This document shows, one piece after another, positions 691-37,388 of a DNA stretch of 64,000 nt (its first letter is position 1; each line of letters begins with the position of its first letter). The notes beneath the pieces are model-generated. The model was not told the DNA's origin and ran no database searches. It worked only from the letters and a program-made list of their open reading frames with translations. Made by a program: the position numbers and the translations under genes. Location: positions 1,861-65,860 of the forward strand of contig CAYHCF010000003.1 of assembly GCA_964355075.1 (NCBI GenBank), written 5' to 3'. Source of the stretch: an uncultured Chitinophaga sp. (GTDB lineage Bacteria; Bacteroidota; Bacteroidia; UKL13-3).

Positions 691-3600
691 TTAATTCACC
701 TGCAATTTCTTCATATATATTGCATCTCCGGTTTGAACCTTTAACAGGTAGAATCCTTTGGGTGAAGTTTGAAGATCAATTTCTTCTGTTTGTAAATTAT
801 TTTTACTGATGGTTTTATGCATCACTTCTTTGCCCAGCATATCCAAAATAAATAGCTGAACATCTTCCTTCTGAACATCCGCCAGACGAACATAAATCAA
901 ACCATTACTTGGATTAGGATATACACTCATTAGGTTCTCAATATTCATTATATCACTAATGCCAGAAGGGCCTTCTTTTAATACATTTATTCTTCTTACC
1001 GCCTCCTCAGATTCATTGCCCGACAAATCTTTTACCTTACACCTCACACTAAATATACCAACTCCATTACCAAATGGCTTAAAATTAGAATTCAGCGGCA
1101 AATTATTTGTGCATATAAGGAATGGACGCATTTCTAAATCTGTATTGTAATTGTCTGTCAACTGCACCGGAGGATCAATGTATTCCTTCCATCTTGGAAG
1201 ATTTATTTCGGTAATGTTCAACAGGTTAATAACAGGTTTGGTGGTATCCACCACTCTTATCTCCCTGCTCACCGAATCCTGGTTTCCGGATGGATCGGTG
1301 GCAATATACCAGATGGTGTAACTGCCCAGAACATTCATGTTTACTGCGCCTTTTTTAGTTACCACGATGGTATTGGTTGGCCAGTAATTATCGGATACCG
1401 TCACCCATGGATCTGCAAATCCACTGAATACCTCTGCGGTCATCGGACTGTTTCCATTCAGGTAAATATTGGGCACTTTTGTGTCTCTTACCCGCACTTC
1501 CACTGCTACCTCATAGCCAATATTTCCGCTTCCGTCCCTTAAATTATACAAGATCAAATAAGTGCCTACCTTGTTCACATCCACCGAACCCTGCCAGGTT
1601 AATACCAGGGCATTTGCTGACCAGAAATTATCGTTTTTTCCAACTACTTTTGCCAGGTCAATGGCCGAACCAACCTGCTGAATGTAAATGTTATTGAGCG
1701 GTGGAACAATAACAGGTCTGGTAGTATCTCCAACAACGATTGCCCTGCTTGCTGTTTTGAAGAAACCAAATGCATCTGTTATCACATAACCGATGCTGTA
1801 TGCACCCAGTTTTGAAGTATCCAGATTACTGCTTACTACTACCTGACTGCTGATATCCATTCCCTGATTGTCTTTGGCAACATAACCCGGTTCAGTATAT
1901 TTTTTGTAAACTTCAACATACATGCTTGCCGAACCATTCAGGGTCAGACTCGGGCCGGTTTGATTGAGTATCACATACACGGTTCTGTTCAGGGTATCAC
2001 TCACATTTCCATACAGATCTTTTACAATATAGCGCAGGTAATTGGGTCCCACTTTGCTGGTATCTACCGTCCCAATTGTTATATATTTACTGCTGATATC
2101 TCCCTCAATATTGTCCATGGATATTACGCCCGGATCTACAAAAGCTTTGTGAATTTCGGTAGTAAAGGATGAACTGCCATTCAATGAAATGCTTGGTTTT
2201 ACGGTATCCATTGGAAAGTTCACTATATAATCTCTGAATACACCCAAAAACAAGACACTCGGATTCAGTTGGGTACCGGCATAGCTTACACCTACTCTCA
2301 ATCGGGTGCCGCCTAATTGCTGGGTGCCGCTGATGGAAATCGTATCTGTTTTCTGCAAGATATTGCTGGCCATGTCGTTCATCACCAACTCATCAATGGT
2401 AAACAAACCATCCATGTTTCTGTCTAACCATGCTTTTCTGTCCATCGGACTGCTGATACCCGGACGGGCAATCTTTAAGACATGTTTCATGCCTCTGTAC
2501 ATATTAGCTGATTGGTTGCCCAATACCATCTGATAGCAAGGCGTAAATGAATTTACTGCGGTATCTAAACCACTTTGTAACTGAACCCGGCTAATCCCGA
2601 TACTGCCATCGGCCAGACCAATATCTGTTAAACACTGTGGCTGATCGTAAGCACCAATATTGATATAATCAACCTTGATCAGCGAATCGGTACCAAATTG
2701 ATTGGTTGCAACCAGTTTTACGGTGTATTTGGTTCTTTGGGTAAAGCGGATGATCGGATTGCGGCTGGTTACCACATTGCCCACTTTTACTGTTCCCATG
2801 ATGGCCTGATAATTTCCACCGGTAATGATCCAGTTCCATACACTCGGTCCAAACAAACTCTGATCGGTAAACCGGAAGGTATCGGTATTAAATCCCTGAA
2901 CTTTATCTACTGTAAATCTTACCAAAGGTTTTTGGTTGGTAGGCAGGAACAATACATTTTTACAACTGGTATCTGCACCCAAACAGTTATAGGTTACCAA
3001 ACATATTTTACGGTAAACGGGAGAGCTTACCACAAAGGTTCTGGTGGCAGTAGGTCCTGTGGAATCATAACCGTTTAAGCCATCGGTATCCCATGAGTAT
3101 TGCATGAGGGTTCCTGTTGAGGTATTTGAATACTGAACCGGCTGGTTATGATAAATGGTATCGGGCACCACAATATGAGATTGTGGAATGCCATAACTCG
3201 CTCCCTTAATAGCCCACCTGATCGAGAAGCCTGCTGAATCATATGGATTTGGTATGGTTCCGTTGCCGGTCATAAATCTTAAAAACAAGCGGTTGCCACC
3301 CCTGATTCCATTATTGATAATGGCTTGTGGCAATACCCCCACACTGGCAGCTCCCAGTTTTCCGATGATAGGTGCGCTTTGACTCGTTCCGTTATGGATA
3401 ACGAGTGTATCGGTTGGCAACATCTTAATGCGATCCACAAATAAAAAGATACTATCGGCGCAAGGATTTAGCAGAAAGCCCGGGCAGCCCGATACCTGCG
3501 ACCTTGTATAAGAGAAGGCCGGTCCACTCGGACCAAACACAAAGCCCTGATCCCAGCTACTACTGGTTGAGCCACTGCCACTGCACATATTTACACTATT

Positions 3601-4827
3601 GATAACCTCTATATAGTTTTGCTTGCATATCGTATCCCATCCCCGGGCATTCCATACCTGGAGGCAGATGGCATATTTACCCGGAAAGCCTCCAAACAAG
3701 AGTGGGTTCTGACCGAGTGGATTAGAGAAGAAATTGGCAAAATACGGATTGGGTACATTCGTTACATCCGGCACGATCGTCCAGTACCATTGGTTTGGGC
3801 CGTAGGAGCTTATATCCACCATGGAGGCATAATCGGCAATACCGATCTTGGTTCGGGCCGAAAAGAAATTAGGTACTGGTGCTCTGCTAGGTGTATCCAC
3901 CCAAATGTATTTTACGATGCTATCGCGCAGGGAATCTCTTTTGTAGGCATTGATAGAAAGCAGGCGAACCGGCCAGAAACCTCTTCTGCCAAAAGTATAT
4001 CTGAATTTTGAACTGTATTTAGCGGTATCAATATAGAGTTGTGAAGTAAAGCCCACATTGGTTCGGGCATAACCCGGGTTCAGAGTTGTTTCTCCGGGTA
4101 GATCCCAATAACTCCGGGTTGTACTGGTACTGGTAGCTACCAAATCAAACGGACTATTTATCCAAACAGTATCGGTGGGTATGGAGCTGGTGGTGGCCTG
4201 ACTTGGGAAAAAGTTAGCGATGGGTGGAAGTAAAACATTAGAACCAATAATGGTTACGTTATAATCTTCTGTTTCGGTCCAATCAACAATATTGCCACAA
4301 TTCTCGGATTGAACGAAGGGGCCTCCGGGAGCACCGCCTCTGTAATTCTGCCAATTTCCTCTAACTCTTAAACGAGTTACTCCTGGAGTTGCGGTTACGG
4401 GTATTGTAACAGTAGTTGCCCATAATTGTGCTGTTGGTAAAGTTCCATATGCACCCGGAGAAAAATAGACAAATTCTCCCGGATCATTGAAATCCATATC
4501 AATATTAAAGTCAATCCAAACTCCAAAGCCATTTGGTTTTGTTGAACTTCCCTGAACAGTCATATTATAAGTATTTCCGGGGAATACCGAAGTAGTTTGT
4601 GCCCATCGGGTATAATATGGAGCCGTTGCATTGCAACCTGAAGCCAGATTTGATAAAGTACTGAAAGTAAAATTATTGATATAATCATTTGTGCCACAAC
4701 CGGCATAGGTGGCACTTACCGTACAATAGGGGGCGGGATCTGTTGAAATTACCTGCCCTTTTACCTGATTAAATATTGATAAAACAACGAAAATCAAGAT
4801 TGAGTAATGTATATATTTTGATTTCAT
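691..4827 (-). CDS. T9SS cargo protein, paralog A (1378 aa). Signal peptide, GEVED-type N-terminal head, PKD-like modules, four DUF5011-like Ig repeats and a type-A Por_Secre_tail C-terminal domain.
   Basis: N-terminus MKSKYIHYSILIFVVLSIF is a signal peptide. The head has GEVED hallmarks (VWIDFNIDMDFNDPGEF, TRLRVR, WTETEDYNVTI). The C-terminus (..MSVYPNPSNGLIYVRLADVQKEDVQLFILDMLGKEV..KGFYLLKVQTGDAIYMKKLQVN) matches the T9SS sorting domain. Repeats of the pattern P-I-L-NG..V..G..Y.EPG..A.D..G-D-S..V......GsY...Y...D..GN fit the DUF5011 Ig-like fold. Confidence 0.85.
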   Translation of the reverse strand: MKSKYIHYSILIFVVLSIFNQVKGQVISTDPAPYCTVSATYAGCGTNDYINNFTFSTLSNLASGCNATAPYYTRWAQTTSVFPGNTYNMTVQGSSTKPNGFGVWIDFNIDMDFNDPGEFVYFSPGAYGTLPTAQLWATTVTIPVTATPGVTRLRVRGNWQNYRGGAPGGPFVQSENCGNIVDWTETEDYNVTIIGSNVLLPPIANFFPSQATTSSIPTDTVWINSPFDLVATSTSTTRSYWDLPGETTLNPGYARTNVGFTSQLYIDTAKYSSKFRYTFGRRGFWPVRLLSINAYKRDSLRDSIVKYIWVDTPSRAPVPNFFSARTKIGIADYASMVDISSYGPNQWYWTIVPDVTNVPNPYFANFFSNPLGQNPLLFGGFPGKYAICLQVWNARGWDTICKQNYIEVINSVNMCSGSGSTSSSWDQGFVFGPSGPAFSYTRSQVSGCPGFLLNPCADSIFLFVDRIKMLPTDTLVIHNGTSQSAPIIGKLGAASVGVLPQAIINNGIRGGNRLFLRFMTGNGTIPNPYDSAGFSIRWAIKGASYGIPQSHIVVPDTIYHNQPVQYSNTSTGTLMQYSWDTDGLNGYDSTGPTATRTFVVSSPVYRKICLVTYNCLGADTSCKNVLFLPTNQKPLVRFTVDKVQGFNTDTFRFTDQSLFGPSVWNWIITGGNYQAIMGTVKVGNVVTSRNPIIRFTQRTKYTVKLVATNQFGTDSLIKVDYINIGAYDQPQCLTDIGLADGSIGISRVQLQSGLDTAVNSFTPCYQMVLGNQSANMYRGMKHVLKIARPGISSPMDRKAWLDRNMDGLFTIDELVMNDMASNILQKTDTISISGTQQLGGTRLRVGVSYAGTQLNPSVLFLGVFRDYIVNFPMDTVKPSISLNGSSSFTTEIHKAFVDPGVISMDNIEGDISSKYITIGTVDTSKVGPNYLRYIVKDLYGNVSDTLNRTVYVILNQTGPSLTLNGSASMYVEVYKKYTEPGYVAKDNQGMDISSQVVVSSNLDTSKLGAYSIGYVITDAFGFFKTASRAIVVGDTTRPVIVPPLNNIYIQQVGSAIDLAKVVGKNDNFWSANALVLTWQGSVDVNKVGTYLILYNLRDGSGNIGYEVAVEVRVRDTKVPNIYLNGNSPMTAEVFSGFADPWVTVSDNYWPTNTIVVTKKGAVNMNVLGSYTIWYIATDPSGNQDSVSREIRVVDTTKPVINLLNITEINLPRWKEYIDPPVQLTDNYNTDLEMRPFLICTNNLPLNSNFKPFGNGVGIFSVRCKVKDLSGNESEEAVRRINVLKEGPSGISDIMNIENLMSVYPNPSNGLIYVRLADVQKEDVQLFILDMLGKEVMHKTISKNNLQTEEIDLQTSPKGFYLLKVQTGDAIYMKKLQVN

Positions 4828-4970: not shown

Positions 4971-4984
4971 CCATATGATTTAAA

Positions 4985-7900
4985 TTAGTTCACCTGCAAT
5001 TTTTTCATATAAACACGGTCTCCGGTTTGAACCTTTAACAGGTAGAATCCTTTTGGTGAAGTTTGAAGATCGATTTCTTCTGTTTGTAAATTATTTTTGC
5101 TGATCGTTTTATGCATCACTTCTTTTCCCAGCATATCCAAAACAAATAGCTGAACATCTTCCTTCTGAACATCGGCCAAACGAACGTGAATCATTCCATT
5201 GCTCGGGTTCGGATATACACTCATCAATTTGTCAATATTCATTATGTCTGTTAAACCGCTGGGTCCTACATATAAAGAACGAATAGCCTCATCAGATTCA
5301 TTGCCCGATAAATCCTTTACTTTATAGCGAACACTGTACAAACCAATATCATGTGCAAAGGGTTTTCCATTTTGCAATGGCAAACTATTTATTGCCACCA
5401 AATTTGCCCGCATCTGTGCATCGGTATTGTAATTATCTACCAACTGTACCGGAGCATCCACATATTCTGTCCACTGAGGAACGTTCACATCGGTAATGTT
5501 CAACAGGTTTACAACAGGTTTGGTGGTATCCACCACTCTTATCTCCCTGCTCACCGAATCCTGGTTTCCGGATGGATCGGTGGCAATATACCAGATGGTA
5601 TAGCTTCCCAAAACATTCATATTCACTGCGCCTTTTTTTGTTACCACGATGGTATTGGATGGCCAGTAATTATCGGATACCGTCACCCATGGATCTGCAA
5701 ATCCACTGAATACCTCTATGGTCATCGGGCTGCTTCCATTCAGGTAAATATTGGGCGATTTTGTGTCTCTTACCCGCACTTCTACTGCTACCTCATAGCC
5801 AATATTTCCGCTTCCGTCTCTTAAATTATACAAGATCAAATAAGTGCCTACCTTGTTTACATCTACCGAACCAATCCAGGTTAATACCAAGGTATTTGCT
5901 GACCAGAAATTATCGGTTTTTCCAACTACTTTTGCCAGATCAATGGCCGAACCCACCTGTTGAATGTAAATGTTATTTAGCGGTGGAACAATAACCGGTC
6001 TTGTGGTATCTCCAACAATGATTGCCCTGCTGGCAGATTTGTAGAATCCAAATGCATCTGTGATCACATAACTGATGCTGTATGAACCCAGCTTTGAAGT
6101 ATCCAGATTACTGCTTACTACTACCTGACTGCTGATATCCATTCCCTGATTGTCTTTGGCAACATAACCCGGTTCAGTATATTTTTTGTAAACTTCAACA
6201 TACATGCTTGCCGAACCATTCAGGGTCAGACTCGGGCCGGTTTGATTGAGTATCACATACACGGTTCTGTTCAGGGTATCACTCACATTTCCATACAGAT
6301 CTTTTACAATATAGCGCAGGTAATTGGGTCCCACTTTGCTGGTATCTACCGTCCCAATTGTTATATATTTACTGCTGATATCTCCCTCAATATTGTCCAT
6401 GGATATTACGCCCGGATCTACAAAAGCTTTGTGTACTTCGGTAGCATAGGCAGAGCTGCCATTCAATGAAATGCTTGGTTTTACGGTATCCATCGGGAAG
6501 TTCACTACATAATCTCTGAATACACCCAAAAACAAGACACTTGGATTCAGTTGGGTACCTGCATAGGTAACACCTACTCTCAATCGGGTGCCTCCTAATT
6601 GCTGGGTTCCACTGATGGAAATCGTATCTATTTTCTGCAAAATATTGCTGGCCATGTCGTTCATCACCAACTCATCATTGGTAAATAAACCATCCATGTT
6701 TCTGTCTAACCAGGCTTTTCTGTCCATAGGACTGCTGATACCCGGACGCGCAATCTTTAAGACATGTTTCATGCCTCTGTACATATTAGCTGATTGGTTG
6801 CCCAATACCATCTGATAGCAAGGCGTAAATGAATTTACTGCGGTATCTAAACCACTTTGTAACTGAACCCGGCTAATCCCGATACTGCCATCGGCCAGAC
6901 CAATATCTGTTAAACACTGTGGCTGATCGTAAGCACCAATATTGATATAATCAACCTTGATCAGCGAATCGGTACCAAATTGATTGGTTGCAACCAGTTT
7001 TACGGTGTATTTGGTTCTTTGGGTAAAGCGGATGATCGGATTGCGGCTGGTTACCACATTGCCCACTTTTACTGTTCCCATGATGGCCTGATAATTTCCA
7101 CCGGTAATGATCCAGTTCCATACACTCGGTCCAAACAAACTCTGATCGGTAAACCGGAAGGTATCGGTATTAAATCCCTGAACTTTATCTACTGTAAATC
7201 TTACCAAAGGTTTTTGGTTGGTAGGCAGGAACAATACATTTTTACAACTGGTATCTGCACCCAAACAGTTATAGGTTACCAAACATATTTTACGGTAAAC
7301 GGGAGAGCTTACCACAAAGGTTCTGGTGGCAGTAGGTCCTGTGGAATCATAACCGTTTAAGCCATCGGTATCCCATGAGTATTGCATGAGGGTTCCTGTT
7401 GAGGTATTTGAATACTGAACCGGCTGGTTATGATAAATGGTATCGGGCACCACAATATGAGATTGTGGAATGCCATAACTCGCTCCCTTAATAGCCCACC
7501 TGATCGAGAAGCCTGCTGAATCATATGGATTTGGTATGGTTCCGTTGCCGGTCATAAATCTTAAAAACAAGCGGTTGCCACCCCTGATTCCATTATTGAT
7601 AATGGCTTGTGGCAATACCCCCACACTGGCAGCTCCCAGTTTTCCGATGATAGGTGCGCTTTGACTCGTTCCGTTATGGATAACGAGTGTATCGGTTGGC
7701 AACATCTTAATGCGATCCACAAATAAAAAGATACTATCGGCGCAAGGATTTAGCAGAAAGCCCGGGCAGCCCGATACCTGCGACCTTGTATAAGAGAAGG
7801 CCGGTCCACTCGGACCAAACACAAAGCCCTGATCCCAGCTACTACTGGTTGAGCCACTGCCACTGCACATATTTACACTATTGATAACCTCTATATAGTT

Positions 7901-9124
7901 TTGCTTGCATATCGTATCCCATCCCCGGGCATTCCATACCTGGAGGCAGATGGCATATTTACCCGGAAAGCCTCCAAACAAGAGTGGGTTCTGACCGAGT
8001 GGATTAGAGAAGAAATTGGCAAAATACGGATTGGGTACATTCGTTACATCCGGCACGATCGTCCAGTACCATTGGTTTGGGCCGTAGGAGCTTATATCCA
8101 CCATGGAGGCATAATCGGCAATACCGATCTTGGTTCGGGCCGAAAAGAAATTAGGCACAGGCGCTCTGCTGGGTGTATCCACCCATATGTATTTTACGAT
8201 GCTGTCGCGCAAGGAATCTCGTTTGTAATCATTAACCGAAAGCAGGCGAACCGGCCAAAATCCTCTCCTTCCAAAAGTATATCTGAATTTTGAGCTGTAT
8301 TTAGCGGTATCAATATATTGTTGTGAAGTAAAGGCTACATTGGTTCTGGCATAACCAGGGTTCAGAGTTGTTTCTCCGGGTAAATCCCAGAAACTTCTGC
8401 TTGCATTGGTACTGGTAGCAACCAAATCAAAGGGACTATTTATCCAAACGGTATCGGTAGGTGTAGAGCTGGTAGTGGCCTGACTTGGGAAGAAGTTGGC
8501 GATGGGGGGTAAAGGAATACCACCAGGTCCGGTTAATGTTTCATCTATACCAAAATCAAAAACATTTGCATCCTGACCTGAGTATGTAAATGTACAGGAT
8601 GCTGCATTAATGTAAGATCTTCTGCCAGCACCTGATCCATTATTAATGGTAAGCATTGAAGTTGTCGTTGATGCACACTGCGAAACATCCACTATTAAAC
8701 TGAGTGAAGTATTATAGGCAAAAGGTGTAGTTAACGTAATGCCCATCCAGCCGTTGGCATCAGATGAACCACTATAAGAAGGGGATGAAAATGCTGTTGT
8801 AAAAGGTCCAGTATAAATACTGGTTGGAAGGGAAGTTATTGTTGACTGACCCAGCTTAATGGTTAAGGTAGTCCAGGTTCCCGATGTAGAAGGTGTGACC
8901 TTAAAATAAACTTTGGTAATAAACCCATTATAGGCACTAATAATTTCATTGGGAGCAATTAGGTATTGGGTTTCTTTCCCAGCTGCTGTAGCCCATGGAA
9001 AACTATTGCTTGGAGAGCCAGCATTACTGTTATAATACTGGGGAGTTTGAGAATTTACGTTTAAACAAATTATGAATTGAAATACAATAAATAAATATAT
9101 GTATCTTTTGTTTATGTTTTTCAT
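4985..9124 (-). CDS. T9SS cargo protein, paralog B (1379 aa). Unrecognised Ser/Thr-rich beta-type N-terminal head of about 200 aa on the shared body, with a T9SS C-terminal domain.
   Basis: Signal peptide MKNINKRYIYLFIVFQFIICLNVNSQ. The body from LPPIANFFPSQATTSS onward is near-identical in DNA sequence to paralogs A and C. The C-terminal domain is ..VYPNPSNGMIHVRLADVQKEDVQLFVLDMLGKEV..YMKKLQVN. Confidence 0.85.
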   Translation of the reverse strand: MKNINKRYIYLFIVFQFIICLNVNSQTPQYYNSNAGSPSNSFPWATAAGKETQYLIAPNEIISAYNGFITKVYFKVTPSTSGTWTTLTIKLGQSTITSLPTSIYTGPFTTAFSSPSYSGSSDANGWMGITLTTPFAYNTSLSLIVDVSQCASTTTSMLTINNGSGAGRRSYINAASCTFTYSGQDANVFDFGIDETLTGPGGIPLPPIANFFPSQATTSSTPTDTVWINSPFDLVATSTNASRSFWDLPGETTLNPGYARTNVAFTSQQYIDTAKYSSKFRYTFGRRGFWPVRLLSVNDYKRDSLRDSIVKYIWVDTPSRAPVPNFFSARTKIGIADYASMVDISSYGPNQWYWTIVPDVTNVPNPYFANFFSNPLGQNPLLFGGFPGKYAICLQVWNARGWDTICKQNYIEVINSVNMCSGSGSTSSSWDQGFVFGPSGPAFSYTRSQVSGCPGFLLNPCADSIFLFVDRIKMLPTDTLVIHNGTSQSAPIIGKLGAASVGVLPQAIINNGIRGGNRLFLRFMTGNGTIPNPYDSAGFSIRWAIKGASYGIPQSHIVVPDTIYHNQPVQYSNTSTGTLMQYSWDTDGLNGYDSTGPTATRTFVVSSPVYRKICLVTYNCLGADTSCKNVLFLPTNQKPLVRFTVDKVQGFNTDTFRFTDQSLFGPSVWNWIITGGNYQAIMGTVKVGNVVTSRNPIIRFTQRTKYTVKLVATNQFGTDSLIKVDYINIGAYDQPQCLTDIGLADGSIGISRVQLQSGLDTAVNSFTPCYQMVLGNQSANMYRGMKHVLKIARPGISSPMDRKAWLDRNMDGLFTNDELVMNDMASNILQKIDTISISGTQQLGGTRLRVGVTYAGTQLNPSVLFLGVFRDYVVNFPMDTVKPSISLNGSSAYATEVHKAFVDPGVISMDNIEGDISSKYITIGTVDTSKVGPNYLRYIVKDLYGNVSDTLNRTVYVILNQTGPSLTLNGSASMYVEVYKKYTEPGYVAKDNQGMDISSQVVVSSNLDTSKLGSYSISYVITDAFGFYKSASRAIIVGDTTRPVIVPPLNNIYIQQVGSAIDLAKVVGKTDNFWSANTLVLTWIGSVDVNKVGTYLILYNLRDGSGNIGYEVAVEVRVRDTKSPNIYLNGSSPMTIEVFSGFADPWVTVSDNYWPSNTIVVTKKGAVNMNVLGSYTIWYIATDPSGNQDSVSREIRVVDTTKPVVNLLNITDVNVPQWTEYVDAPVQLVDNYNTDAQMRANLVAINSLPLQNGKPFAHDIGLYSVRYKVKDLSGNESDEAIRSLYVGPSGLTDIMNIDKLMSVYPNPSNGMIHVRLADVQKEDVQLFVLDMLGKEVMHKTISKNNLQTEEIDLQTSPKGFYLLKVQTGDRVYMKKLQVN

Positions 9125-13574: not shown

Positions 13575-13600
13575 ATATCAATTCACCTGCAATTTCTATT
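13575..13600 (-). repeat. Orphan relic of the paralog gene 3' end (attcacctgcaatttct), in the same orientation as paralogs A-C.
   Basis: A 17-nt exact match to the reverse-complemented stop-proximal sequence (..KLQVN*) of the family, lying in intergenic DNA 175 bp upstream of paralog C's start codon. Confidence 0.6.
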
Positions 13601-28994: not shown

Positions 28995-31900
28995 ATGAAA
29001 AAACATATACCAATTAAATCCTTTAGTGCCCTTATTATTTTCTTTTTTTGCTTTTCTAACCTCAAAGGGCAATCATCGTTCAATATGTGTTCATCCAACC
29101 CCGGAGCAATCTATTCTCTCACAGGGTCATTTTATGATTCTGGTGGCCCATCAGCTAGCTATTTAGACAATGAAAATTGTACAGTTTTATTTACCGCCCC
29201 TCCGGGAGGTACCATTAGCTTAACATTTAATTCCTTTGCCACCGAAGCTAGTTGGGATTATATGCAGGTTTATGATGGAAACAGCATTTTGGGTATTCCT
29301 CTGCACCCTACAACCGGGGGTTCCGGTTCCTCAGGTTATGGTCCCGGATTTAATGGAACCGTAACCGGCCCTTTTACGCTGGTTGCAACTACCGGTTATA
29401 TGTTTGTTCAGTATAGAAGTGATGCCTCAGTTACTTATGCCGGTTGGAACGCCAATTGGGTGATGACTACTCCTGGTTCAGGTCTAGCCTTACCCCCCAT
29501 CGCCAACTTTTTCCCAAGTCAGGCCACCACAAGCTCCATACCCACCGATACCGTTTGGATAAACAGCCCTTTTGATTTAGTGGCTACCAGTACCAGTTCG
29601 AGCAGAAGCTATTGGGATCTACCCGGAGAAACAACTCTGAACCCGGGTTATGCCCGAACCAATGTGGGCTTTACTTCACAACTCTATATTGATACCGCTA
29701 AATACAGTTCAAAATTCAGATATACTTTTGGCAGAAGAGGTTTCTGGCCGGTTCGCCTGCTTTCTATCAATGCCTACAAACGAGATTCCCTGCGCGATAG
29801 CATCGTGAAATACATTTGGGTGGATACGCCCAGCAGAGCGCCCGTTCCTAATTTCTTTTCGGCCCGAACCAAGATCGGTATTGCGGATTATGCCTCCTTG
29901 GTGGATATCAGCTCTTACGGTCCCAACCAATGGTACTGGACGATCAATCCGGATGTAACGAATGTACCCAATCCGTATTTTGCCAATTTCTTCTCTAATC
30001 CACTCGGTCAGAACCCACTCTTGTTTGGAGGCTTTCCGGGTAAATATGCCATCTGCCTCCAGGTATGGAATGCCCGGGGATGGGATACGATATGCAAGCA
30101 AAACTATATAGAGGTTATCAATAGTGTAAATATGTGCAGTGGCAGTGGCTCAACCAGTAGTAGCTGGGATCAGGGCTTTGTGTTTGGTCCGAGTGGACCG
30201 GCCTTCTCTTATACAAGGTCGCAGGTATCGGGCTGCCCGGGCTTTCTGCTAAATCCTTGCGCCGATAGTATCTTTTTATTTGTGGATCGCATTAAGATGT
30301 TGCCAACCGATACACTCGTTATCCATAACGGAACGAGTCAAAGCGCACCTATCATCGGAAAACTGGGAGCTGCCAGTGTGGGGGTATTGCCACAAGCCAT
30401 TATCAATAATGGAATCAGGGGTGGCAACCGCTTGTTTTTAAGATTTATGACCGGCAACGGAACCATACCAAATCCATATGATTCAGCAGGCTTCTCGATC
30501 AGGTGGGCTATTAAGGGAGCGAGTTATGGCATTCCACAATCTCATATTGTGGTGCCCGATACCATTTATCATAACCAGCCGGTTCAGTATTCAAATACCT
30601 CAACAGGAACCCTCATGCAATACTCATGGGATACCGATGGCTTAAACGGTTATGATTCCACAGGACCTACTGCCACCAGAACCTTTGTGGTAAGCTCTCC
30701 CGTTTACCGTAAAATATGTTTGGTAACCTATAACTGTTTGGGTGCAGATACCAGTTGTAAAAATGTATTGTTCCTGCCTACCAACCAAAAACCTTTGGTA
30801 AGATTTACAGTAGATAAAGTTCAGGGATTTAATACCGATACCTTCCGGTTTACCGATCAGAGTTTGTTTGGACCGAGTGTATGGAACTGGATCATTACCG
30901 GTGGAAATTATCAGGCCATCATGGGAACAGTAAAAGTGGGCAATGTGGTAACCAGCCGCAATCCGATCATCCGCTTTACCCAAAGAACCAAATACACCGT
31001 AAAACTGGTTGCAACCAATCAATTTGGTACCGATTCGCTGATCAAGGTTGATTATATCAATATTGGTGCTTACGATCAGCCACAGTGTTTAACAGATATT
31101 GGTCTGGCCGATGGCAGTATCGGGATTAGCCGGGTTCAGTTGCAAAGTGGTTTGGACACCGCGGTGAATTCATTTACGCCATGTTATCAGATGGTATTGG
31201 GCAATCAGGCGGCTAATATGTACAGAGGCATGAAACATGTCTTAAAGATTGCCCGTCCGGGTATTACCAGTCCAATGGACAGAAAAGCATGGTTAGACAG
31301 AAACATGGATGGTTTGTTTACCAATGATGAGTTGGTGATGAATGACATGGCCAGCAATATTTTGCAGAAAACAGATACGATTTCCATTAGTGGAACCCAG
31401 CAATTAGGGGGCACCCGATTGAGAGTAGGTGTATCCTATGCCGGTACCCAACTGAATCCGAGTGTCTTGTTTTTGGGGGTATTCAGAGATTATATAGTGA
31501 ACTTCCCGATGGATACCGTAAAACCAAGCATTTCATTGAATGGCAGTTCATCCTTTACTACCGAAATTCACAAAGCTTTTGTAGATCCGGGCGTAATATC
31601 CATGGACAATATTGAGGGAGATATCAGCAGTAAATATATAACAATTGGGACGGTAGATACCAGCAAAGTGGGACCCAATTACCTGCGCTATATTGTAAAA
31701 GATCTGTATGGAAATGTGAGTGATACCCTGAACAGAACGGTGTATGTGATACTCAATCAAACCGGACCAAGTATCGCCCTGAGTGGTTCAGCCAGCATGT
31801 ATGTTGAAGTTTATAAAAAATATACCGAACCGGGTTATGTTGCCAAAGATAATCAGGGAATGGATATCAGCAGTCAGGTAGTAGTAAGCAGTAATTTGGA

Positions 31901-33017
31901 TACTTCAAAACTGGGTTCATACAGCATAGGATATGTAATAATAGATGCCTTTGGTTTCAGTAAATCAGCCAGTAGAGCAGTAGCAGTTGGAGATACCACA
32001 AGACCGGTTATTGTTCCACCTACGGGTAATATTTACATTCAGCAGGTTGGATCGGCCATTGACCTGGCCACTATAGTTGGGAAAACCGATAATTTCTGGT
32101 CTACAAATGCCTTGGTATTAACCTGGCTGGGTTCGGTAGATGTAAACAAGGTAGGTAGCTATGTGATCTTGTATAATTTAAGAGACGGAAGCGGAAATAT
32201 TGGCTATGAGCTTGCAGTAGAAGTGCGGGTAAGAGACACAAAAGCGCCAAATATTTACCTGAATGGAAGCACTCCGATGACCATAGAGGTATTCAGTGGA
32301 TTTGCAGATCCATGGGTGACGGTATCCGATAATTACTGGCCATCCAATACCATCGTGGTAACAAAAAAAGGCGCAGTGAACATGAATGTTTTGGGTAGCT
32401 ATACCATCTGGTATATTGCCACCGATCCATCCGGAAACCAAGATTCGGTGAGCAGGGAGATAAGAGTTGTGGATACCACCAAACCTGTTGTAAACCTGTT
32501 GAACATTACCGAGGTAAATGTTCCACAGTGGACGGAATATGTGGATGCTCCGGTGCAGTTAACAGATAATTACAATACCGATGCACAGATGCGGGCAAAT
32601 TTGGTAGTAGTGAATAATTTGCCATTACAAAATGGAAAACCCTTCGCACATGATATTGGTTTGTACAGTGTTCGCTATAAAGTTAAGGATTTGTCGGGCA
32701 ATGAATCAAAAGAAGCTGTTCGTTCCTTGAATGTTGGAGCGAGTGGCTTAACAGACATCATGAATATTGACAAATTGATGAGCGTATATCCGAACCCGAG
32801 CAATGGTTTGATTCATGTTCGATTGGCGGATGTGCAGAAGGAAGATGTTCAGGTATTTGTTTTGGATATGTTGGGCAAAGAGCTGATGCATAAAACAATC
32901 AGTAAAAATAATTTACAAACAGAAGAAATCGATCTTCAAACTTCACCCAAAGGATTCTACCTGTTAAAGGTTCAAACCGGCGACCATATTTATATGAAGA
33001 AATTGCAATTGAATTAA
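28995..33017 (+). CDS. T9SS cargo protein, paralog D (1340 aa). CUB-like N-terminal head on the shared body, with a T9SS C-terminal domain.
   Basis: Signal peptide MKKHIPIKSFSALIIFFFCFSNLKGQ. The head (CSSNPGAIYSLTGSFYDSGGPSASYLDNENCTVLF..FNSFATEASWDYMQVYDGNS..YMFVQYRSDASVTYAGWNANW) fits the CUB pattern. The body is the reverse complement of paralogs A-C. The C-terminal domain ends ..YMKKLQLN. Confidence 0.85.
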   Translation: MKKHIPIKSFSALIIFFFCFSNLKGQSSFNMCSSNPGAIYSLTGSFYDSGGPSASYLDNENCTVLFTAPPGGTISLTFNSFATEASWDYMQVYDGNSILGIPLHPTTGGSGSSGYGPGFNGTVTGPFTLVATTGYMFVQYRSDASVTYAGWNANWVMTTPGSGLALPPIANFFPSQATTSSIPTDTVWINSPFDLVATSTSSSRSYWDLPGETTLNPGYARTNVGFTSQLYIDTAKYSSKFRYTFGRRGFWPVRLLSINAYKRDSLRDSIVKYIWVDTPSRAPVPNFFSARTKIGIADYASLVDISSYGPNQWYWTINPDVTNVPNPYFANFFSNPLGQNPLLFGGFPGKYAICLQVWNARGWDTICKQNYIEVINSVNMCSGSGSTSSSWDQGFVFGPSGPAFSYTRSQVSGCPGFLLNPCADSIFLFVDRIKMLPTDTLVIHNGTSQSAPIIGKLGAASVGVLPQAIINNGIRGGNRLFLRFMTGNGTIPNPYDSAGFSIRWAIKGASYGIPQSHIVVPDTIYHNQPVQYSNTSTGTLMQYSWDTDGLNGYDSTGPTATRTFVVSSPVYRKICLVTYNCLGADTSCKNVLFLPTNQKPLVRFTVDKVQGFNTDTFRFTDQSLFGPSVWNWIITGGNYQAIMGTVKVGNVVTSRNPIIRFTQRTKYTVKLVATNQFGTDSLIKVDYINIGAYDQPQCLTDIGLADGSIGISRVQLQSGLDTAVNSFTPCYQMVLGNQAANMYRGMKHVLKIARPGITSPMDRKAWLDRNMDGLFTNDELVMNDMASNILQKTDTISISGTQQLGGTRLRVGVSYAGTQLNPSVLFLGVFRDYIVNFPMDTVKPSISLNGSSSFTTEIHKAFVDPGVISMDNIEGDISSKYITIGTVDTSKVGPNYLRYIVKDLYGNVSDTLNRTVYVILNQTGPSIALSGSASMYVEVYKKYTEPGYVAKDNQGMDISSQVVVSSNLDTSKLGSYSIGYVIIDAFGFSKSASRAVAVGDTTRPVIVPPTGNIYIQQVGSAIDLATIVGKTDNFWSTNALVLTWLGSVDVNKVGSYVILYNLRDGSGNIGYELAVEVRVRDTKAPNIYLNGSTPMTIEVFSGFADPWVTVSDNYWPSNTIVVTKKGAVNMNVLGSYTIWYIATDPSGNQDSVSREIRVVDTTKPVVNLLNITEVNVPQWTEYVDAPVQLTDNYNTDAQMRANLVVVNNLPLQNGKPFAHDIGLYSVRYKVKDLSGNESKEAVRSLNVGASGLTDIMNIDKLMSVYPNPSNGLIHVRLADVQKEDVQVFVLDMLGKELMHKTISKNNLQTEEIDLQTSPKGFYLLKVQTGDHIYMKKLQLN

Positions 33018-33043
33018 CTGAAGAAATTGCTGGTGAGTCATCT
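33018..33043 (+). repeat. Degenerate duplicate of the paralog 3' end (ctgaagaaattgctggtgagtcatct) immediately after paralog D's stop codon.
   Basis: Compared with the canonical gene end atgaagaaattgcaggtgaattaa there are 17 matches over the first 20 nt. A tandem copy directly abuts the real end (..aagaaattgcaattgaattaa). Confidence 0.55.
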
Positions 33044-33057
33044 CACACTTTCATAAA

Positions 33058-33290: not shown

Positions 33291-36200
33291 ATGAAAAAAC
33301 AAATACAAACCGGTTTACTTTTATTATTGCTAATTTTTAGCTTAAGTTCCGGTAAACTTTATGCTCAATACTGTCTCACAACAGGTGCAACATCTTACTT
33401 TGATGATGAGATTGCAAGAGTTTATATTATAGGGGCGTTTGGAACCTCTATTAACAATCCAACAACTTGTTATACAACGGTACCGCAATATGTTGATTTT
33501 ACAAGTACCTTGGCCCCACTTTCATTAGTGCCGGGGCAAACCTATTCCATGACCATTGATTTAACTCAATGCAGCGGTTTTTTCTATTCCAATTCTTGTA
33601 ATATTTGGATTGATTTTAACAGGAATTTCACTTTTGATGCTACCGAATTGATTCAGAATGTTGTTGCGAATTCAACTTTCCCCTCTACCCATACTTTTAC
33701 TTTTACTGTTCCTACCACAGCAACTTTAGGGGCATCCCGCATGCGTTTGGTGGATGTTGAAGGAGGTACTTCGGCATCTATTACACCTTGTGTTACTTAC
33801 ACCTGGGGAGAAACTGAGGATTATGCAGTTAATCTGGTAAATTCTTCCGGCGGAGCAATTTTGCCGCCTATCGCAAACTTTTTCCCAAGTCAGGCCACTA
33901 CGAGCTCCATCCCCACTGATACCGTTTGGATAAATAGCCCCTTTGATTTAGTTTCTACGAGCACCAGTTCCAGTAGAAGTTATTGGGATCTACCCGGAGA
34001 AACAACTTTGAACCCGGGTTATGCCAGAACCAATGTAGCCTTTACTTCACAACAATATATTGATACGGCTAAATACAGCTCAAGATTTAGATATACTTTT
34101 GGCAGAAGAGGTTTCTGGCCGGTTCGCCTGCTTTCCATCAATGATTTCAAACGAGATTCCCTGCGTGATAGCATCGTAAAATACATTTGGGTGGATACAC
34201 CCAGCAGAGCACCTGTGCCTAATTTCTTTTCGGCCCGAACCAAGATCGGTATTGCGGATTATGCCTCCTTGGTGGATATCAGCTCTTACGGTCCCAACCA
34301 ATGGTACTGGACGATCAATCCGGATGTAACGAATGTACCCAATCCGTATTTTGCCAATTTCTTCTCTAATCCACTCGGTCAGAACCCACTCTTGTTTGGA
34401 GGCTTTCCGGGTAAATATGCCATCTGCCTCCAGGTATGGAATGCCCGGGGATGGGATACGATATGCAAGCAAAACTATATAGAGGTTATCAATAGTGTAA
34501 ATATGTGCAGTGGCAGTGGCTCAACCAGTAGTAGCTGGGATCAGGGCTTTGTGTTTGGTCCGAGTGGACCGGCCTTCTCTTATACAAGGTCGCAGGTATC
34601 GGGCTGCCCGGGCTTTCTGCTAAATCCTTGCGCCGATAGTATCTTTTTATTTGTGGATCGCATTAAGATGTTGCCAACCGATACACTCGTTATCCATAAC
34701 GGAACGAGTCAAAGCGCACCTATCATCGGAAAACTGGGAGCTGCCAGTGTGGGGGTATTGCCACAAGCCATTATCAATAATGGAATCAGGGGTGGCAACC
34801 GCTTGTTTTTAAGATTTATGACCGGCAACGGAACCATACCAAATCCATATGATTCAGCAGGCTTCTCGATCAGGTGGGCTATTAAGGGAGCGAGTTATGG
34901 CATTCCACAATCTCATATTGTGGTGCCCGATACCATTTATCATAACCAGCCGGTTCAGTATTCAAATACCTCAACAGGAACCCTCATGCAATACTCATGG
35001 GATACCGATGGCTTAAACGGTTATGATTCCACAGGACCTACTGCCACCAGAACCTTTGTGGTAAGCTCTCCCGTTTACCGTAAAATATGTTTGGTAACCT
35101 ATAACTGTTTGGGTGCAGATACCAGTTGTAAAAATGTATTGTTCCTGCCTACCAACCAAAAACCTTTGGTAAGATTTACAGTAGATAAAGTTCAGGGATT
35201 TAATACCGATACCTTCCGGTTTACCGATCAGAGTTTGTTTGGACCGAGTGTATGGAACTGGATCATTACCGGTGGAAATTATCAGGCCATCATGGGAACA
35301 GTAAAAGTGGGCAATGTGGTAACCAGCCGCAATCCGATCATCCGCTTTACCCAAAGAACCAAATACACCGTAAAACTGGTTGCAACCAATCAATTTGGTA
35401 CCGATTCGCTGATCAAGGTTGATTATATCAATATTGGTGCTTACGATCAGCCACAGTGTTTAACAGATATTGGTCTGGCCGATGGCAGTATCGGGATTAG
35501 CCGGGTTCAGTTGCAAAGTGGTTTGGACACCGCGGTGAATTCATTTACGCCATGTTATCAGATGGTATTGGGCAATCAGGCGGCTAATATGTACAGAGGC
35601 ATGAAACATGTCTTAAAGATTGCCCGTCCGGGTATTACCAGTCCAATGGACAGAAAAGCATGGTTAGACAGAAACATGGATGGTTTGTTTACCAATGATG
35701 AGTTGGTGATGAATGACATGGCCAGCAATATTTTGCAGAAAACAGATACGATTTCCATTAGTGGAACCCAGCAATTAGGGGGCACCCGATTGAGAGTAGG
35801 TGTATCCTATGCCGGTACCCAACTGAATCCGAGTGTCTTGTTTTTGGGTGTATTCAGAGATTATATAGTGAACTTTCCAATGGATACCGTAAAACCAAGC
35901 ATTTCATTGAATGGCAGTTCATCCTTTACTACCGAAATTCACAAAGCTTTTGTAGATCCGGGCGTAATATCCATGGACAATATTGAGGGAGATATCAGCA
36001 GTAAATATATAACAATTGGGACGGTAGATACCAGCAAAGTGGGACCCAATTACCTGCGCTATATTGTAAAAGATCTGTATGGAAATGTGAGTGATACCCT
36101 GAACAGAACGGTGTATGTGATACTCAATCAAACCGGACCAAGTATCGCCCTGAGTGGTTCAGCCAGCATGTATGTTGAAGTTTATAAAAAATATACCGAA

Positions 36201-37388
36201 CCGGGTTATGTTGCCAAAGACAATCAGGGCAATAATATCAGCAGTCAGGTAGTTGTAAGCAGTAATCTGGATACTTCAAAACTGGGTTCATATAGTATCG
36301 GTTATGTGATAACAGATGCGTTTGGATTCTTCAAATCTGCCAGCAGGGCAATTATTGTTGGAGACACCACCAGACCTGTTATTGTTCCACCGCTAAATAA
36401 CATCTACATTCAGCAGGTGGGTTCGGCCATTGACCTGGCCACTATAGTTGGAAAAACCGATAATTACTGGTCACCAAATACCCTGATATTTGCCTGGCTG
36501 GGTTCGGTAGATGTAAACAAAGTAGGCAGCTATGTGATCTTATATAATTTAAGAGATGGAAGCGGAAATATTGGCTATGAGGTAGCAGTGGAAGTGCGGG
36601 TAAGGGACACAAAATCGCCCAATATTTACCTGAACGGAAGCACTCCGATGACCGCAGAGGTATTCAGTGGATTTGCAGATCCGTGGGTAACGGTATCCGA
36701 TAATTACTGGCCTTCCAATACAATCGTGGTAACTAAAAAAGGCGCAGTAAACATGAATGTTCTGGGCAGTTACACCATCTGGTATATTGCCACCGATCCA
36801 TCCGGAAATCAGGATTCGGTGAGCAGAGAGATAAGAGTAGTGGATACCACAAAACCCATTGTAAACCTATTGAACATTAACGAGGTAAATGTTCCACAGT
36901 GGACGGAATATGTGGATGCTCCGGTGCAGTTAACAGATAATTACAATACCGATGCACAGATGCGGGCAAATTTGGTGGCAATAAATAGTTTGCCATTGCA
37001 AAATGGAAAACCCTTTGCACATGATATTGGCTTGTACAGTGTTCGCTATAAAGTTAAAGATTTGTCGGGCAATGAATCTGTGGAGGCAGTTCGTACCTTG
37101 AATGTTGGAGCGAGTGGTTTAACCGACATCATGAACATTGACAAATTGATGAGCGTATATCCGAACCCGAGCAATGGCTTGATTCACGTTCGATTGGCGG
37201 ATGTTCAGAAGGAAGATGTTCAGGTATTTATTTTGGATATGTTGGGTAAAGAAATGACGCATAAAACGATCAGTAAAAATAATTTACAAACAGAAGAAAT
37301 CGATCTTCAAACTTCACCAAAAGGATTCTACCTGTTAAAGGTTCAAACCGGCGATGCCATTTATATGAAGAAATTGCAGGTGAATTAA
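33291..37388 (+). CDS. T9SS cargo protein, paralog E (1365 aa from MKKQIQ. An in-frame upstream ATG at 33234 would give 1384 aa). A second GEVED-type N-terminal head on the shared body, with a T9SS C-terminal domain.
   Basis: Signal peptide MKKQIQTGLLLLLLIFSLSSGKLYAQ. The head has IWIDFNRNFTFD, SRMRLV and WGETEDYAVNLV (GEVED) motifs but is only distantly related to paralog A's head. The body and C-terminal domain match the family. Confidence 0.85.
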   Translation: MKKQIQTGLLLLLLIFSLSSGKLYAQYCLTTGATSYFDDEIARVYIIGAFGTSINNPTTCYTTVPQYVDFTSTLAPLSLVPGQTYSMTIDLTQCSGFFYSNSCNIWIDFNRNFTFDATELIQNVVANSTFPSTHTFTFTVPTTATLGASRMRLVDVEGGTSASITPCVTYTWGETEDYAVNLVNSSGGAILPPIANFFPSQATTSSIPTDTVWINSPFDLVSTSTSSSRSYWDLPGETTLNPGYARTNVAFTSQQYIDTAKYSSRFRYTFGRRGFWPVRLLSINDFKRDSLRDSIVKYIWVDTPSRAPVPNFFSARTKIGIADYASLVDISSYGPNQWYWTINPDVTNVPNPYFANFFSNPLGQNPLLFGGFPGKYAICLQVWNARGWDTICKQNYIEVINSVNMCSGSGSTSSSWDQGFVFGPSGPAFSYTRSQVSGCPGFLLNPCADSIFLFVDRIKMLPTDTLVIHNGTSQSAPIIGKLGAASVGVLPQAIINNGIRGGNRLFLRFMTGNGTIPNPYDSAGFSIRWAIKGASYGIPQSHIVVPDTIYHNQPVQYSNTSTGTLMQYSWDTDGLNGYDSTGPTATRTFVVSSPVYRKICLVTYNCLGADTSCKNVLFLPTNQKPLVRFTVDKVQGFNTDTFRFTDQSLFGPSVWNWIITGGNYQAIMGTVKVGNVVTSRNPIIRFTQRTKYTVKLVATNQFGTDSLIKVDYINIGAYDQPQCLTDIGLADGSIGISRVQLQSGLDTAVNSFTPCYQMVLGNQAANMYRGMKHVLKIARPGITSPMDRKAWLDRNMDGLFTNDELVMNDMASNILQKTDTISISGTQQLGGTRLRVGVSYAGTQLNPSVLFLGVFRDYIVNFPMDTVKPSISLNGSSSFTTEIHKAFVDPGVISMDNIEGDISSKYITIGTVDTSKVGPNYLRYIVKDLYGNVSDTLNRTVYVILNQTGPSIALSGSASMYVEVYKKYTEPGYVAKDNQGNNISSQVVVSSNLDTSKLGSYSIGYVITDAFGFFKSASRAIIVGDTTRPVIVPPLNNIYIQQVGSAIDLATIVGKTDNYWSPNTLIFAWLGSVDVNKVGSYVILYNLRDGSGNIGYEVAVEVRVRDTKSPNIYLNGSTPMTAEVFSGFADPWVTVSDNYWPSNTIVVTKKGAVNMNVLGSYTIWYIATDPSGNQDSVSREIRVVDTTKPIVNLLNINEVNVPQWTEYVDAPVQLTDNYNTDAQMRANLVAINSLPLQNGKPFAHDIGLYSVRYKVKDLSGNESVEAVRTLNVGASGLTDIMNIDKLMSVYPNPSNGLIHVRLADVQKEDVQVFILDMLGKEMTHKTISKNNLQTEEIDLQTSPKGFYLLKVQTGDAIYMKKLQVN

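Follow-up and report, generated by a model that had tools for sequence, protein, structure and literature searches.

Probable type A T9SS cargo family of freshwater Bacteroidota with old heads on a gene-converted stalk

In the window, a stretch of 64,000 nucleotides, five paralogous genes encode large proteins with unrelated N-terminal heads and one common body. We consider it probable that they belong to an unnamed family of T9SS type A cargo proteins, in which old ligand-binding heads are carried on a stalk subject to gene conversion.

Five paralogues with different heads and one common body

The five open reading frames proposed by the first-pass annotation were confirmed, both in coordinates and in strand. 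Paralogues A, B and C are on the minus strand. Paralogue A is composed of one head (4231..4827; residues 1–199), which contains the signal peptide and a GEVED domain of subtype 1 (Pfam), and one body (691..4230; residues 200–1378), which was defined by alignment, Pfam, NCBIfam and AlphaFold and ends in a type A C-terminal sorting domain (CTD, 697-924). The head of paralogue B (8513..9124; residues 1–204) is a β-sandwich without Pfam family; its body (4985..8512, CTD 4991-5218) is identical to the database protein P0003. Paralogue C has a DUF7402 head (12851..13399; residues 1–183), found by a Pfam scan of the head alone, and a body at 9323..12850 (CTD 9329-9556). Paralogues D and E are on the plus strand. 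The D head (28995..29489; residues 1–165) is a Pfam CUB domain, followed by a body (29490..33017, CTD 32784-33005) that is identical to P0004; the E head (33291..33860; residues 1–190) is a Pfam GEVED domain of subtype 2, followed by a body at 33861..37388 (CTD 37155-37382). Like the A body, the bodies of B–E were defined by alignment, Pfam and NCBIfam. The mechanical ORF list starts paralogue E at an upstream TTG (33234); the ATG at 33291 yields a normal signal peptide. Antisense ORFs within the bodies (5351-5824 and 9689-10162) were rejected as repeated chance ORFs. The genome has seven paralogues in total; F and G are located at a second locus and bear two further heads.

In the protein alignment, the N-terminal 165–204 residues of the five proteins are unalignable and are followed by a common body of 1,175–1,179 residues, with an identity of 82–100% per 100-residue window. 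At the DNA level, homology begins with the codon for Leu in LPPIANFF and runs as far as the stop codon, forming five 3.5-kb repeats of 92–100% identity, which is far beyond chance. All heads join the body at one identical residue, as stated in the earlier reading. The LPPIANFF junction fits the pattern P-x-A-x-F, which we take to be the typical opening of a PKD domain, and a similar motif recurs at the next body module as APVPNFF; the junction therefore looks like a domain boundary, not a recombination site.

As judged by inspection of the alignment, every paralogue has its own signal peptide, as had been annotated. All five N-termini are basic, continue into a hydrophobic stretch and reach a small residue followed by Gln; the putative cleavage sites are KGQ, NSQ, HAQ, KGQ and YAQ, respectively. 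The AlphaFold model of B predicts a helix at residues 4–20. Each of the five genes is followed by a terminator hairpin of its own. A scan for sigma-70 promoters gave no signal above the shuffled expectation, and neither Rfam nor tRNA scans of the window returned any match. One relic of a body 3′ end (13578..13598, minus strand) sits 180 nt upstream of C and is followed by a terminator hairpin; 19 of its 21 nt match the codons for ..KKLQVN and the stop. The search for such relics gave 6 matches, compared to 0.01 expected by chance.

Domain composition of the heads and the body

The GEVED domains of heads A and E score 66 and 99 bits in Pfam, respectively, and share 31% identity, in keeping with the annotation of E as a second, divergent GEVED. 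Head D, which had been described as CUB-like, matches CUB (PF00431) with 32.2 bits, above the gathering cut-off of 21.4. The discoidin/F5-8 type C assignment of head C had to be replaced; it gave no match to F5_F8_type_C (PF00754) at E ≤ 1, and matched DUF7402 with 28.9 bits (cut-off 27) when scanned alone, with a weak match to CBM96. Head B had been left unrecognised and indeed belongs to no family in Pfam; its fold model is a β-sandwich resembling PHR domains, CBMs and phage receptor-binding domains. To our knowledge, GEVED and DUF7402 are domains without established function. Pfam, NCBIfam and the fold models identified no catalytic domain, and an enzymatic function was rejected on this ground.

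The body layout proposed earlier was correct in its four DUF5011-like stretches (PF16403 in Pfam) and its type A sorting domain; however, it was incomplete. The body contains four PKD-like sandwiches, not two, and an internal GEVED domain, a CUB-like jelly-roll domain and a fifth, HYR-like Ig domain had been overlooked. The internal GEVED reaches 26–31 bits in B, C and D, compared to the PF20009 cut-off of 24.4. Scanned alone, the internal jelly-roll domain has no Pfam match, and BLASTP between it and the CUB head of D gave none; its family profile, searched against PDB sequences, found CUB1-CUB2 of PCPE-1 with E = 0.0012. This borderline value suggests a CUB-like domain, not a proven CUB. The AlphaFold model of residues 200–879 of A has a pLDDT of 88.

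At the extreme C-terminus, all five proteins match Por_Secre_tail (PF18962; 51–54 bits, cut-off 27) and TIGR04183 (45.8–48 bits, cut-off 23), which bears out the type A assignment; the final residues are ..KKLQVN or ..KKLQLN. The type A CTD is the only one found; the type B CTD (TIGR04131) was not detected in the five proteins. T9SS genes had been reported close by and are present in the window. PorV, which shuttles cargo that has a type A CTD (55228..56505, minus strand), scores 487 bits with NF033710 (cut-off 250), and PorU, the T9SS sortase (56550..60425, minus strand), scores 1,299 bits with NF033707 (cut-off 420). Two PorP/SprF family genes (60562-61557 and 61592-62593, plus strand) match PF11751 with 197 and 190 bits, as well as TIGR03519. 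GldJ (62663..64000, plus strand) is cut by the window end; its TIGR03524 score of 345 bits is under the cut-off because the protein is truncated. porK-N and sprA are absent from the window. The PorP/SprF genes are more than 23 kb away from the paralogues and adjoin none of them. These matches support the five proteins as predicted T9SS type A cargo.

Old heads and concerted evolution of the body

About 100 homologues of 1,340–1,410 residues with a conserved PPIA[NSG]F junction were found in uncultured freshwater Bacteroidota; the family members include a cyanobacterium-associated strain. The homologues carry about 13 head types, most of them without Pfam family. The head subtypes of the window recur, with the PPIA[NSG]F junction unchanged, in lineages whose bodies are 38–66% identical. 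Compared to the MAG B1(2017), heads A, E and C are 79, 65 and 78% identical, and the bodies 66%; the B1(2017) counterparts of A and E are P0017 (head 79% identical to A) and P0013 (head 65% identical to E). Since the same head subtypes occur with the same junction in distant lineages, these comparisons show the heads to be old, paralogue-specific modules.

The bodies behave differently. The first-pass annotation had suggested a comparison of head-body combinations in related genomes; there, bodies cluster by genome and not by head type, while the heads are mixed. Along the entire body, identity within a genome (82–100% in the window and 71–99% in B1) exceeds that between lineages (56–77%), and pairs matched by head have bodies no more alike than those of other pairs. 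A significantly long concordant run is present in each pair of paralogues, with partner switching along the gene (permutation P ≤ 0.0045). dS is 0.28–0.68 beside the junction, falls to about 0 in the core and is 0.06–0.38 in the 3′ part; dN/dS is 0.05–0.21 throughout the body. Taken together, these patterns show concerted evolution, in which gene conversion among the paralogues of a genome keeps their bodies alike. Conversion cannot enter the non-homologous heads and flanks, hence the razor-sharp boundaries. UKL13-3, whose genome was finished with PacBio (PMC5248499), shows the concerted evolution of the body independently: its two paralogues are 1.9 Mb apart and have unrelated heads, and their bodies share 96–100% DNA identity over about 2.6 kb. 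Body homogenisation is not universal; in the counter-case MAG SO_2016, the bodies of five paralogues are mostly about 50% identical in DNA. The statement that heads are more conserved than bodies, drawn from the best ortholog pairs, was dropped, as the reciprocal-best medians are 39% for heads and 45% for bodies.

The bodies could also be alike simply because they are young, if the genes were duplicated recently in each lineage and the heads were grafted at the junction by shuffling or horizontal transfer. The sharp boundary and the conserved junction motif fit such a history, and the resemblance of heads to the internal GEVED and CUB-like domains of the body is compatible with past domain shuffling. 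However, at least three head subtypes (A, E and C) are common to B1(2017) at 65–79% identity and with the same junction, and repeated acquisition of these heads by several lineages, each on its own, would be a far less parsimonious account. Between lineages, head identity never exceeds 80%, which gives no indication of a recent transfer; the identity values already point to heads older than the within-genome coalescence of the bodies. The mosaic with changing partners and the dS gradient are signatures of gene conversion. We therefore regard recent duplication with grafting as improbable.

The heads had been described as swapped, interchangeable cassettes. This description did not hold: the head subtypes are old, and the likeness of the bodies is secondary to concerted evolution. 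A programmed, shufflon-like form of variation, in which recombination between stalks, some of them inverted (A–C versus D–E), shuffles heads, tails and promoters, is highly improbable. The long near-identical repeats do lie in both orientations around a 15.6-kb segment, and the relic of a lost copy upstream of C indicates that rearrangements have occurred. But each copy is complete and has a signal peptide, an upstream region and a terminator of its own; promoterless cassettes are absent, housekeeping genes fill the segment from C to D, and the gene order is the same in two assemblies. Exchange inside the body would give essentially the same proteins. Among the annotated ORFs of the window, there is no silent cassette, recombinase, invertase or reverse transcriptase, and a DGR, shufflon or cassette mechanism was rejected on this basis.

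The identical core and the assembly

One core of 1,193 nt is 100% identical in the five copies (A 2579..3771, B 6861-8053 and C 11199-12391 on the minus strand; D 29949-31141 and E 34320-35512 on the plus strand). The core bears a haplotype specific to this assembly, so neither the perfect match between the copies nor the phasing of heads with tails across the core is fully trustworthy. When the window was compared to a second assembly over 24 kb, all 38 mismatches were located in the cores of D and E, 19 in each and at corresponding positions. All copies of a given assembly share one core haplotype; a third assembly mixes both. Many MAG contigs break inside these genes. The exact identity of the core is thus probably due to repeat collapse by the assembler, and, in a short-read-style assembly, part of the mosaic structure and of the head-to-tail phasing could reflect what the assembler chose.

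In a stronger form, the near-identity of the bodies or the multiplicity of heads would itself be produced by repeat collapse or chimeric joins in a short-read metagenome. This we consider very unlikely. Outside the core, the copies all differ from each other and the second assembly reproduces them identically, and every head is contiguous with a copy-specific 5′ segment of the body. Dozens of other genomes have the same architecture and head types, and the PacBio-finished genome contains two near-identical bodies with different heads (PMC5248499). Only the weak form, a collapsed core, is likely true. Such genes break or collapse in short-read assemblies, and per-copy MAG sequences are therefore not to be trusted.

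Proposed function

With gene conversion on the body and old heads as the preferred reading, a working model can be outlined. Each gene would form its own transcription unit. The product carries a Sec signal peptide, apparently cut before Gln, then one β-sandwich head of about 140–185 residues (GEVED, CUB, DUF7402, a PHR/CBM-like fold or others) and a short Gly/Ser/Pro linker. The following rod comprises about 11 β-sandwich domains, in the order two PKD-like, CUB-like, two PKD, GEVED, four PF16403 Ig-like and HYR-like, and is followed by the type A CTD. After Sec export and T9SS translocation, PorV would recognise the CTD and PorU would cleave it, and the protein would then be anchored at the surface or released. 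With sorting and anchoring at the C-terminus, the head at the other end would be placed at the far tip of the rod. As judged from the fold class, the head is most likely a ligand-binding module, probably glycan-binding, with seven specificities on one chassis. Most likely, the family would supply a set of binding proteins, at the surface or released, whose distal tip binds the ligand.

Cargo with a type A CTD uses PorV and is then either anchored at the surface or released (PMC12618676); as type A cargo may be released instead of anchored, the term adhesin could be wrong. The same molecules may have another role, either as RemA-like mobile gliding adhesins or as soluble proteins released for binding or scavenging. 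We regard this as rather unlikely. GldJ and PorP/SprF genes are present in the window, RemA is a lectin adhesin with a type A CTD, and type A cargo is releasable into the medium (PMC12618676); on the other side, Pfam and NCBIfam detected neither the SUEL-type lectin domain nor a type B CTD in the five proteins.

Comparison with known systems

The first-pass annotation did not recognise a described named family, and no name was found, either in the literature (GEVED plus T9SS included) or among database names. The kind of system is already known: the family is a variant of T9SS adhesin and paralogue families. RemA of Flavobacterium johnsoniae is also a large T9SS cargo protein that has a type A CTD, lacks a catalytic domain and bears its sugar-binding module on a β-rich, repetitive body (PMC12618676), in a host with gliding genes. 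The lectin domain type of RemA was not detected here, and sequence homology does not go beyond Ig, PKD and CTD modules of a generic kind; nor is RemA known to form a paralogue set with alternative heads on a homogenised body.

In Tannerella forsythia, two gene clusters encode six secreted proteins of T9SS type, the KLIKK proteases, which, like the present proteins, combine differing N-terminal functional domains with a nearly identical C-terminal region (PMC4404884). In KLIKK proteins, however, it is the protease catalytic domain that varies, and the common region is short, ending in -KLIKK, whereas the present family has a small binding-type variable domain, a 1,175-residue rod and the ending ..KKLQVN; no peptidase family was found in the five proteins by Pfam or NCBIfam. 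The gingipains RgpA and Kgp and the HagA protein of Porphyromonas gingivalis are type A cargo with identical adhesin-domain repeats across genes, which break short-read assemblies and show modular rearrangement (PMC5266723). There, the common modules are themselves adhesins and the catalytic N-termini differ; the five proteins have no Pfam match to cleaved-adhesin or DUF2436 at E ≤ 0.01. They also lack the TIGR04131 CTD and a PorP/SprF gene directly downstream, by which SprB-type gliding adhesins are recognised.

Intimin/invasin-type adhesins, like others with stalks of Ig repeats, have an N-terminal anchor and a C-terminal lectin-like tip, and use type V secretion. Like them, the present proteins would present a small binding domain on an Ig-like rod, away from the membrane anchor; the polarity is opposite, the secretion route is different and the two are not homologous. 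The structures that matched the body model best included those of the grappling-hook protein GhpA from Aureispira (PDB 9flw, 9flp and 9fly). Both are long Ig-like strings; GhpA is much larger, and with TM-scores of 0.12–0.13, the likeness is that of generic Ig-domain strings.

Significance

Homogenisation of the stalk may itself be under selection, if all paralogues must fit one lineage-specific partner in a dedicated surface organelle with one chassis and many sensors. We put this forward as a rather doubtful extension. If true, the partner could be, for example, an anchor or track at the surface that all paralogues use, or the stalks could pack side by side in a mixed fibre or coat, and freshwater Bacteroidota of the NS11-12/UKL13-3 type would possess an organelle that attaches to cyanobacteria, algae or particles via about 13 ancient tip specificities.

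The family, which has a fixed junction, heads of about 13 types and about 11 domains in its stalk, offers a clean natural example of a stalk that evolves in concert within each genome, while the small modules at its tip remain different from each other and are passed on across lineages. Its heads are ready candidates for novel domains that bind glycans or other ligands, and may help to explain attachment to particles or algae.

Organization of the five window paralogues

The window contains five genes for secreted T9SS cargo proteins. According to the ORF list, paralogues A (691–4827), B (4985–9124) and C (9323–13399) are on the minus strand and D (28995–33017) is on the plus strand. Paralogue E is also on the plus strand; it is listed with a TTG start at 33234, but the ATG at 33291, which yields a normal signal peptide, was taken as its start. 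The first-pass annotation described the five genes as different N-terminal heads on one common body, and protein alignment of the five agrees. The N-terminal 165–204 residues are unalignable, whereas the bodies (1,175–1,179 residues) are 82–100% identical per 100-residue window. The heads also meet the body at one identical point, as had been claimed: in all five genes the shared DNA starts precisely with the Leu codon of LPPIANFF and stops precisely with the stop codon. Linkers preceding this junction and the 3′ flanks are mutually unrelated, and each gene is followed by a G+C-rich hairpin and T-run of its own. All five signal peptides are basic, then hydrophobic, and end in a small residue followed by Gln.

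Pfam searches recovered the annotated GEVED heads of A (66 bits) and E (99 bits), which are only 31% identical to each other, and the CUB head of D (32.2 bits, cut-off 21.4). The C head had been assigned to the discoidin/F5-8 type C fold; however, F5_F8_type_C was not detected in it by domain search, and the head scanned alone matched DUF7402 instead (28.9 bits, cut-off 27). Pfam and NCBIfam searches found no family for the B head. Each of the five bodies contains four Ig-like PF16403 stretches, plus weak PKD and HYR matches, and ends in a type A sorting domain (PF18962, 51–54 bits versus a cut-off of 27; TIGR04183, 46–48 bits versus 23). The annotated DUF5011-like repeats and sorting domain are thus present, but the description of the body had left out an internal GEVED domain at about residues 800–875 (26–31 bits versus 24.4). 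This part of the first-pass interpretation stands: the proteins are T9SS cargo whose binding-type heads differ while the stalk stays constant.

Distribution of the family

One contig of ENA assembly ERZ4201063 is 99.84% identical to window positions 18995–43017. A second contig encodes two further paralogues, F (1,370 residues) and G (1,401 residues), whose bodies share 91–95% DNA identity with those of A–E and which bear two further heads. This contig has similar coverage, and the genome therefore contains at least seven family members, no two with the same head. The F/G locus (L002 5696–14206 and L003 10001–14113, from ERZ4201063 and ERZ4201064; same or near-identical organism) lies directly downstream of an OEP/ABC-transporter operon. 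The window itself begins, beside gene A, with an HlyD-like fragment (62–613).

Using the body as query, we retrieved 111 proteins, about 95 of which are full-body homologues; the complete ones are nearly all 1,330–1,430 residues in length. They belong to uncultured Bacteroidota and bear no annotation more specific than 'PKD repeat protein', 'DUF5011 domain-containing' or 'immunoglobulin-like domain-containing'. An exhaustive phmmer search with body residues 1–360 gave 49 cluster representatives at E ≤ 1e-30. In most of the nearest matches that seem complete, the body begins at about target residue 150–250, and the PKD plus jelly-roll unit was also found within larger proteins of 1,500–3,600 residues. 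The P-P-I-A-[NSG]-F junction is kept in nearly all homologues, even where the bodies are 35% identical. A PKD domain typically opens with a P-x-A-x-F pattern, which this motif fits; since the following body module also begins this way (APVPNFF), the junction resembles a boundary between structural domains.

The heads fall into 10–11 types, or 13 after loci of GTDB genomes were added, and most types have no Pfam family. A genome scan located the family in about 45 freshwater lake, pond and reservoir MAGs, where many contigs break off inside family genes, and in Bacteroidetes bacterium UKL13-3, which is present in an Aphanizomenon co-culture and has a complete genome. One MAG assigned to the GTDB family UKL13-3 is classified by its 16S as NS11-12 marine group (PMC13460031).

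Concerted evolution of the bodies

The bodies cluster by genome or lineage, and head types are mixed within the clusters. The A, E and C heads are 79, 65 and 78% identical to their head-matched counterparts in MAG B1(2017), compared to 66% for the bodies; between B and the database homologue P0087, identity is 66% for the heads and 38% for the bodies. Whole-body identity is higher within genomes (82–100% in the window, 71–99% in B1) than between lineages (56–77%), and the bodies of the head-matched pairs (A–P0017, E–P0013 and C–P0012) are no closer than those of unmatched pairs. As head-specific paralogues are older than the split of the compared lineages, homogenisation of the bodies must have come later, within each genome.

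Long concordant runs are significant in all ten window paralogue pairs, and the partner changes along the gene (permutation P ≤ 0.0045). Synonymous divergence starts at 0.28–0.68 in the 140 codons that follow the junction, falls to about 0 in the core (1,193 nt; 2579–3771 in A) and reaches 0.06–0.38 in the 3′ part, as expected when conversion declines towards homology edges. The runs with changing partners and this gradient are further signatures of gene conversion. dN/dS is 0.05–0.21 along the whole stalk, so selection on it is purifying rather than diversifying.

The UKL13-3 genome is a single contig that HGAP assembled from PacBio reads with a mean length of 7.7 kb and 112x coverage (PMC5248499). 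The two paralogues in it are 1.9 Mb apart and have unrelated heads, but their bodies are 96–100% DNA-identical over about 2.6 kb; this pair independently confirms homogenised bodies under different heads. Homogenisation is not universal: among the five paralogues at the two loci of MAG SO_2016_GW1_20 (L069, L070), DNA identity of the bodies is mostly about 50%, with the exception of two specific inter-locus pairs (80–97% and 60–82%). This lineage has largely escaped homogenisation and may preserve a near-ancestral state. The heads had been regarded as interchangeable cassettes. With shared head subtypes that predate the lineage split and bodies that group by genome, that description should be replaced, on these comparisons, by one of ancient head-specific paralogues with stalks evolving in concert.

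Assembly of the core

The core is identical across all five window copies. Compared over 24 kb, the window and the ENA contig differ at 38 positions, every one of them within the core; D and E have 19 each, at corresponding sites. This alternative haplotype is common to copies C, D, E, F and G of the ENA assembly; the first haplotype is common to A–E in the window's assembly and to an F copy recorded from NCBI, whose contig is not tied with certainty to that assembly. A third assembly has a mixture of both. Otherwise-identical strains would not each sweep a different 19-SNP haplotype through seven copies, so the likely cause of the perfect identity is that the assembler collapsed repeats or removed bubbles. 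The true copies probably differ at these sites, and the head-to-tail phasing may be unreliable across the core.

This caveat does not touch the existence of the heads. Every head runs without a break into a 5′ body segment specific to its copy, which the second assembly reproduces, and these head types recur in many genomes, which speaks against the differing N-termini being an assembly chimera, a possibility that the first-pass annotation had raised.

Genomic surroundings

Profile matches confirmed the T9SS genes reported nearby: PorV (55228–56505), PorU (56550–60425), two PorP/SprF genes (60562–62593) and GldJ (62663–64000), the last cut by the window end. The 15.6-kb interval between C and D contains housekeeping genes, including CoA transferase, plsY, TIM, folP, cdaA and shikimate kinase. 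Among the annotated window genes, none encodes a recombinase, integrase or reverse transcriptase. Another T9SS type A cargo protein, PKD-rich and 2,845 residues in length, is encoded at 40451–48988 (plus strand). Pfam gave five PKD stretches (best, residues 2246–2329) and a CTD (residues 2767–2840) in it, and NCBIfam gave no match.

Between plsY and TIM, a 1,461-residue ORF with a signal peptide (15541–19926, minus strand) is conserved in the second assembly and has zero Pfam or NCBIfam matches. Within the 760 nt that separate the TIM gene from the sugar-nucleotidyltransferase gene is a 45-nt inverted repeat (21013–21057/21347–21391; 82% complementary, arms 289 nt apart) without an Rfam match. 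A 1,082-residue UvrD/PcrA/AddA-like helicase (51432–54680, minus strand), whose C-terminal part weakly matches a Cas4-like nuclease, is a recombination-repair enzyme.

At 13578–13598 (minus strand), 21 nt match the 3′-terminal codons of a family body, stop codon included (19/21). This relic is 180 nt upstream of C, the usual inter-copy spacing, and is followed by a terminator-like hairpin (about 13470–13510). C was probably once preceded by another tandem copy that has been deleted. Right after the D stop codon, CTGAAGAAATTGCTGGTGAGT (33018–33040) duplicates the final ~20 nt of a body (GAAGAAATTGCAGGTGA), which looks like a small scar of imprecise recombination or duplication.

Proposed route and relation to known systems

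With the architecture, sorting signal, T9SS context and evolutionary pattern documented here, established T9SS biology (PMC12618676) predicts that the proteins would be exported by Sec and translocated, after which PorV would bind the type A CTD and PorU processing would lead to surface anchoring or release. Because the anchoring end is C-terminal, the head would be placed at the distal tip of a rod with about 12 domains. Judging from fold class, ligand binding is the putative role of the heads, with glycans as the probable targets. The proteins may act as static adhesins, as mobile adhesins like RemA or as binding proteins that are released.

RemA, a lectin adhesin with a type A CTD, is the closest functional analogue. 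In evolution and architecture, the closest analogues are the Tannerella KLIKK proteases, which join differing N-terminal domains to an almost identical C-terminal region (PMC4404884), and the P. gingivalis gingipain/HagA adhesin modules, whose identical inter-gene repeats defeated assemblers too (PMC5266723). Different from the former, the window proteins have neither a peptidase domain nor the KLIKK motif in domain searches and alignment; different from the latter, they lack cleaved-adhesin domains in domain searches. A type B CTD with adjacent SprF is also absent from them. Membership in these families was rejected, as the defining features of each are missing. We found no paper describing the present family and, as its homologues bear generic annotations only, the earlier view that it is not a described named family holds. 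Taken together, this unnamed family is a variant of a type of system that is already known, with stalks that evolve in concert under ancient heads.
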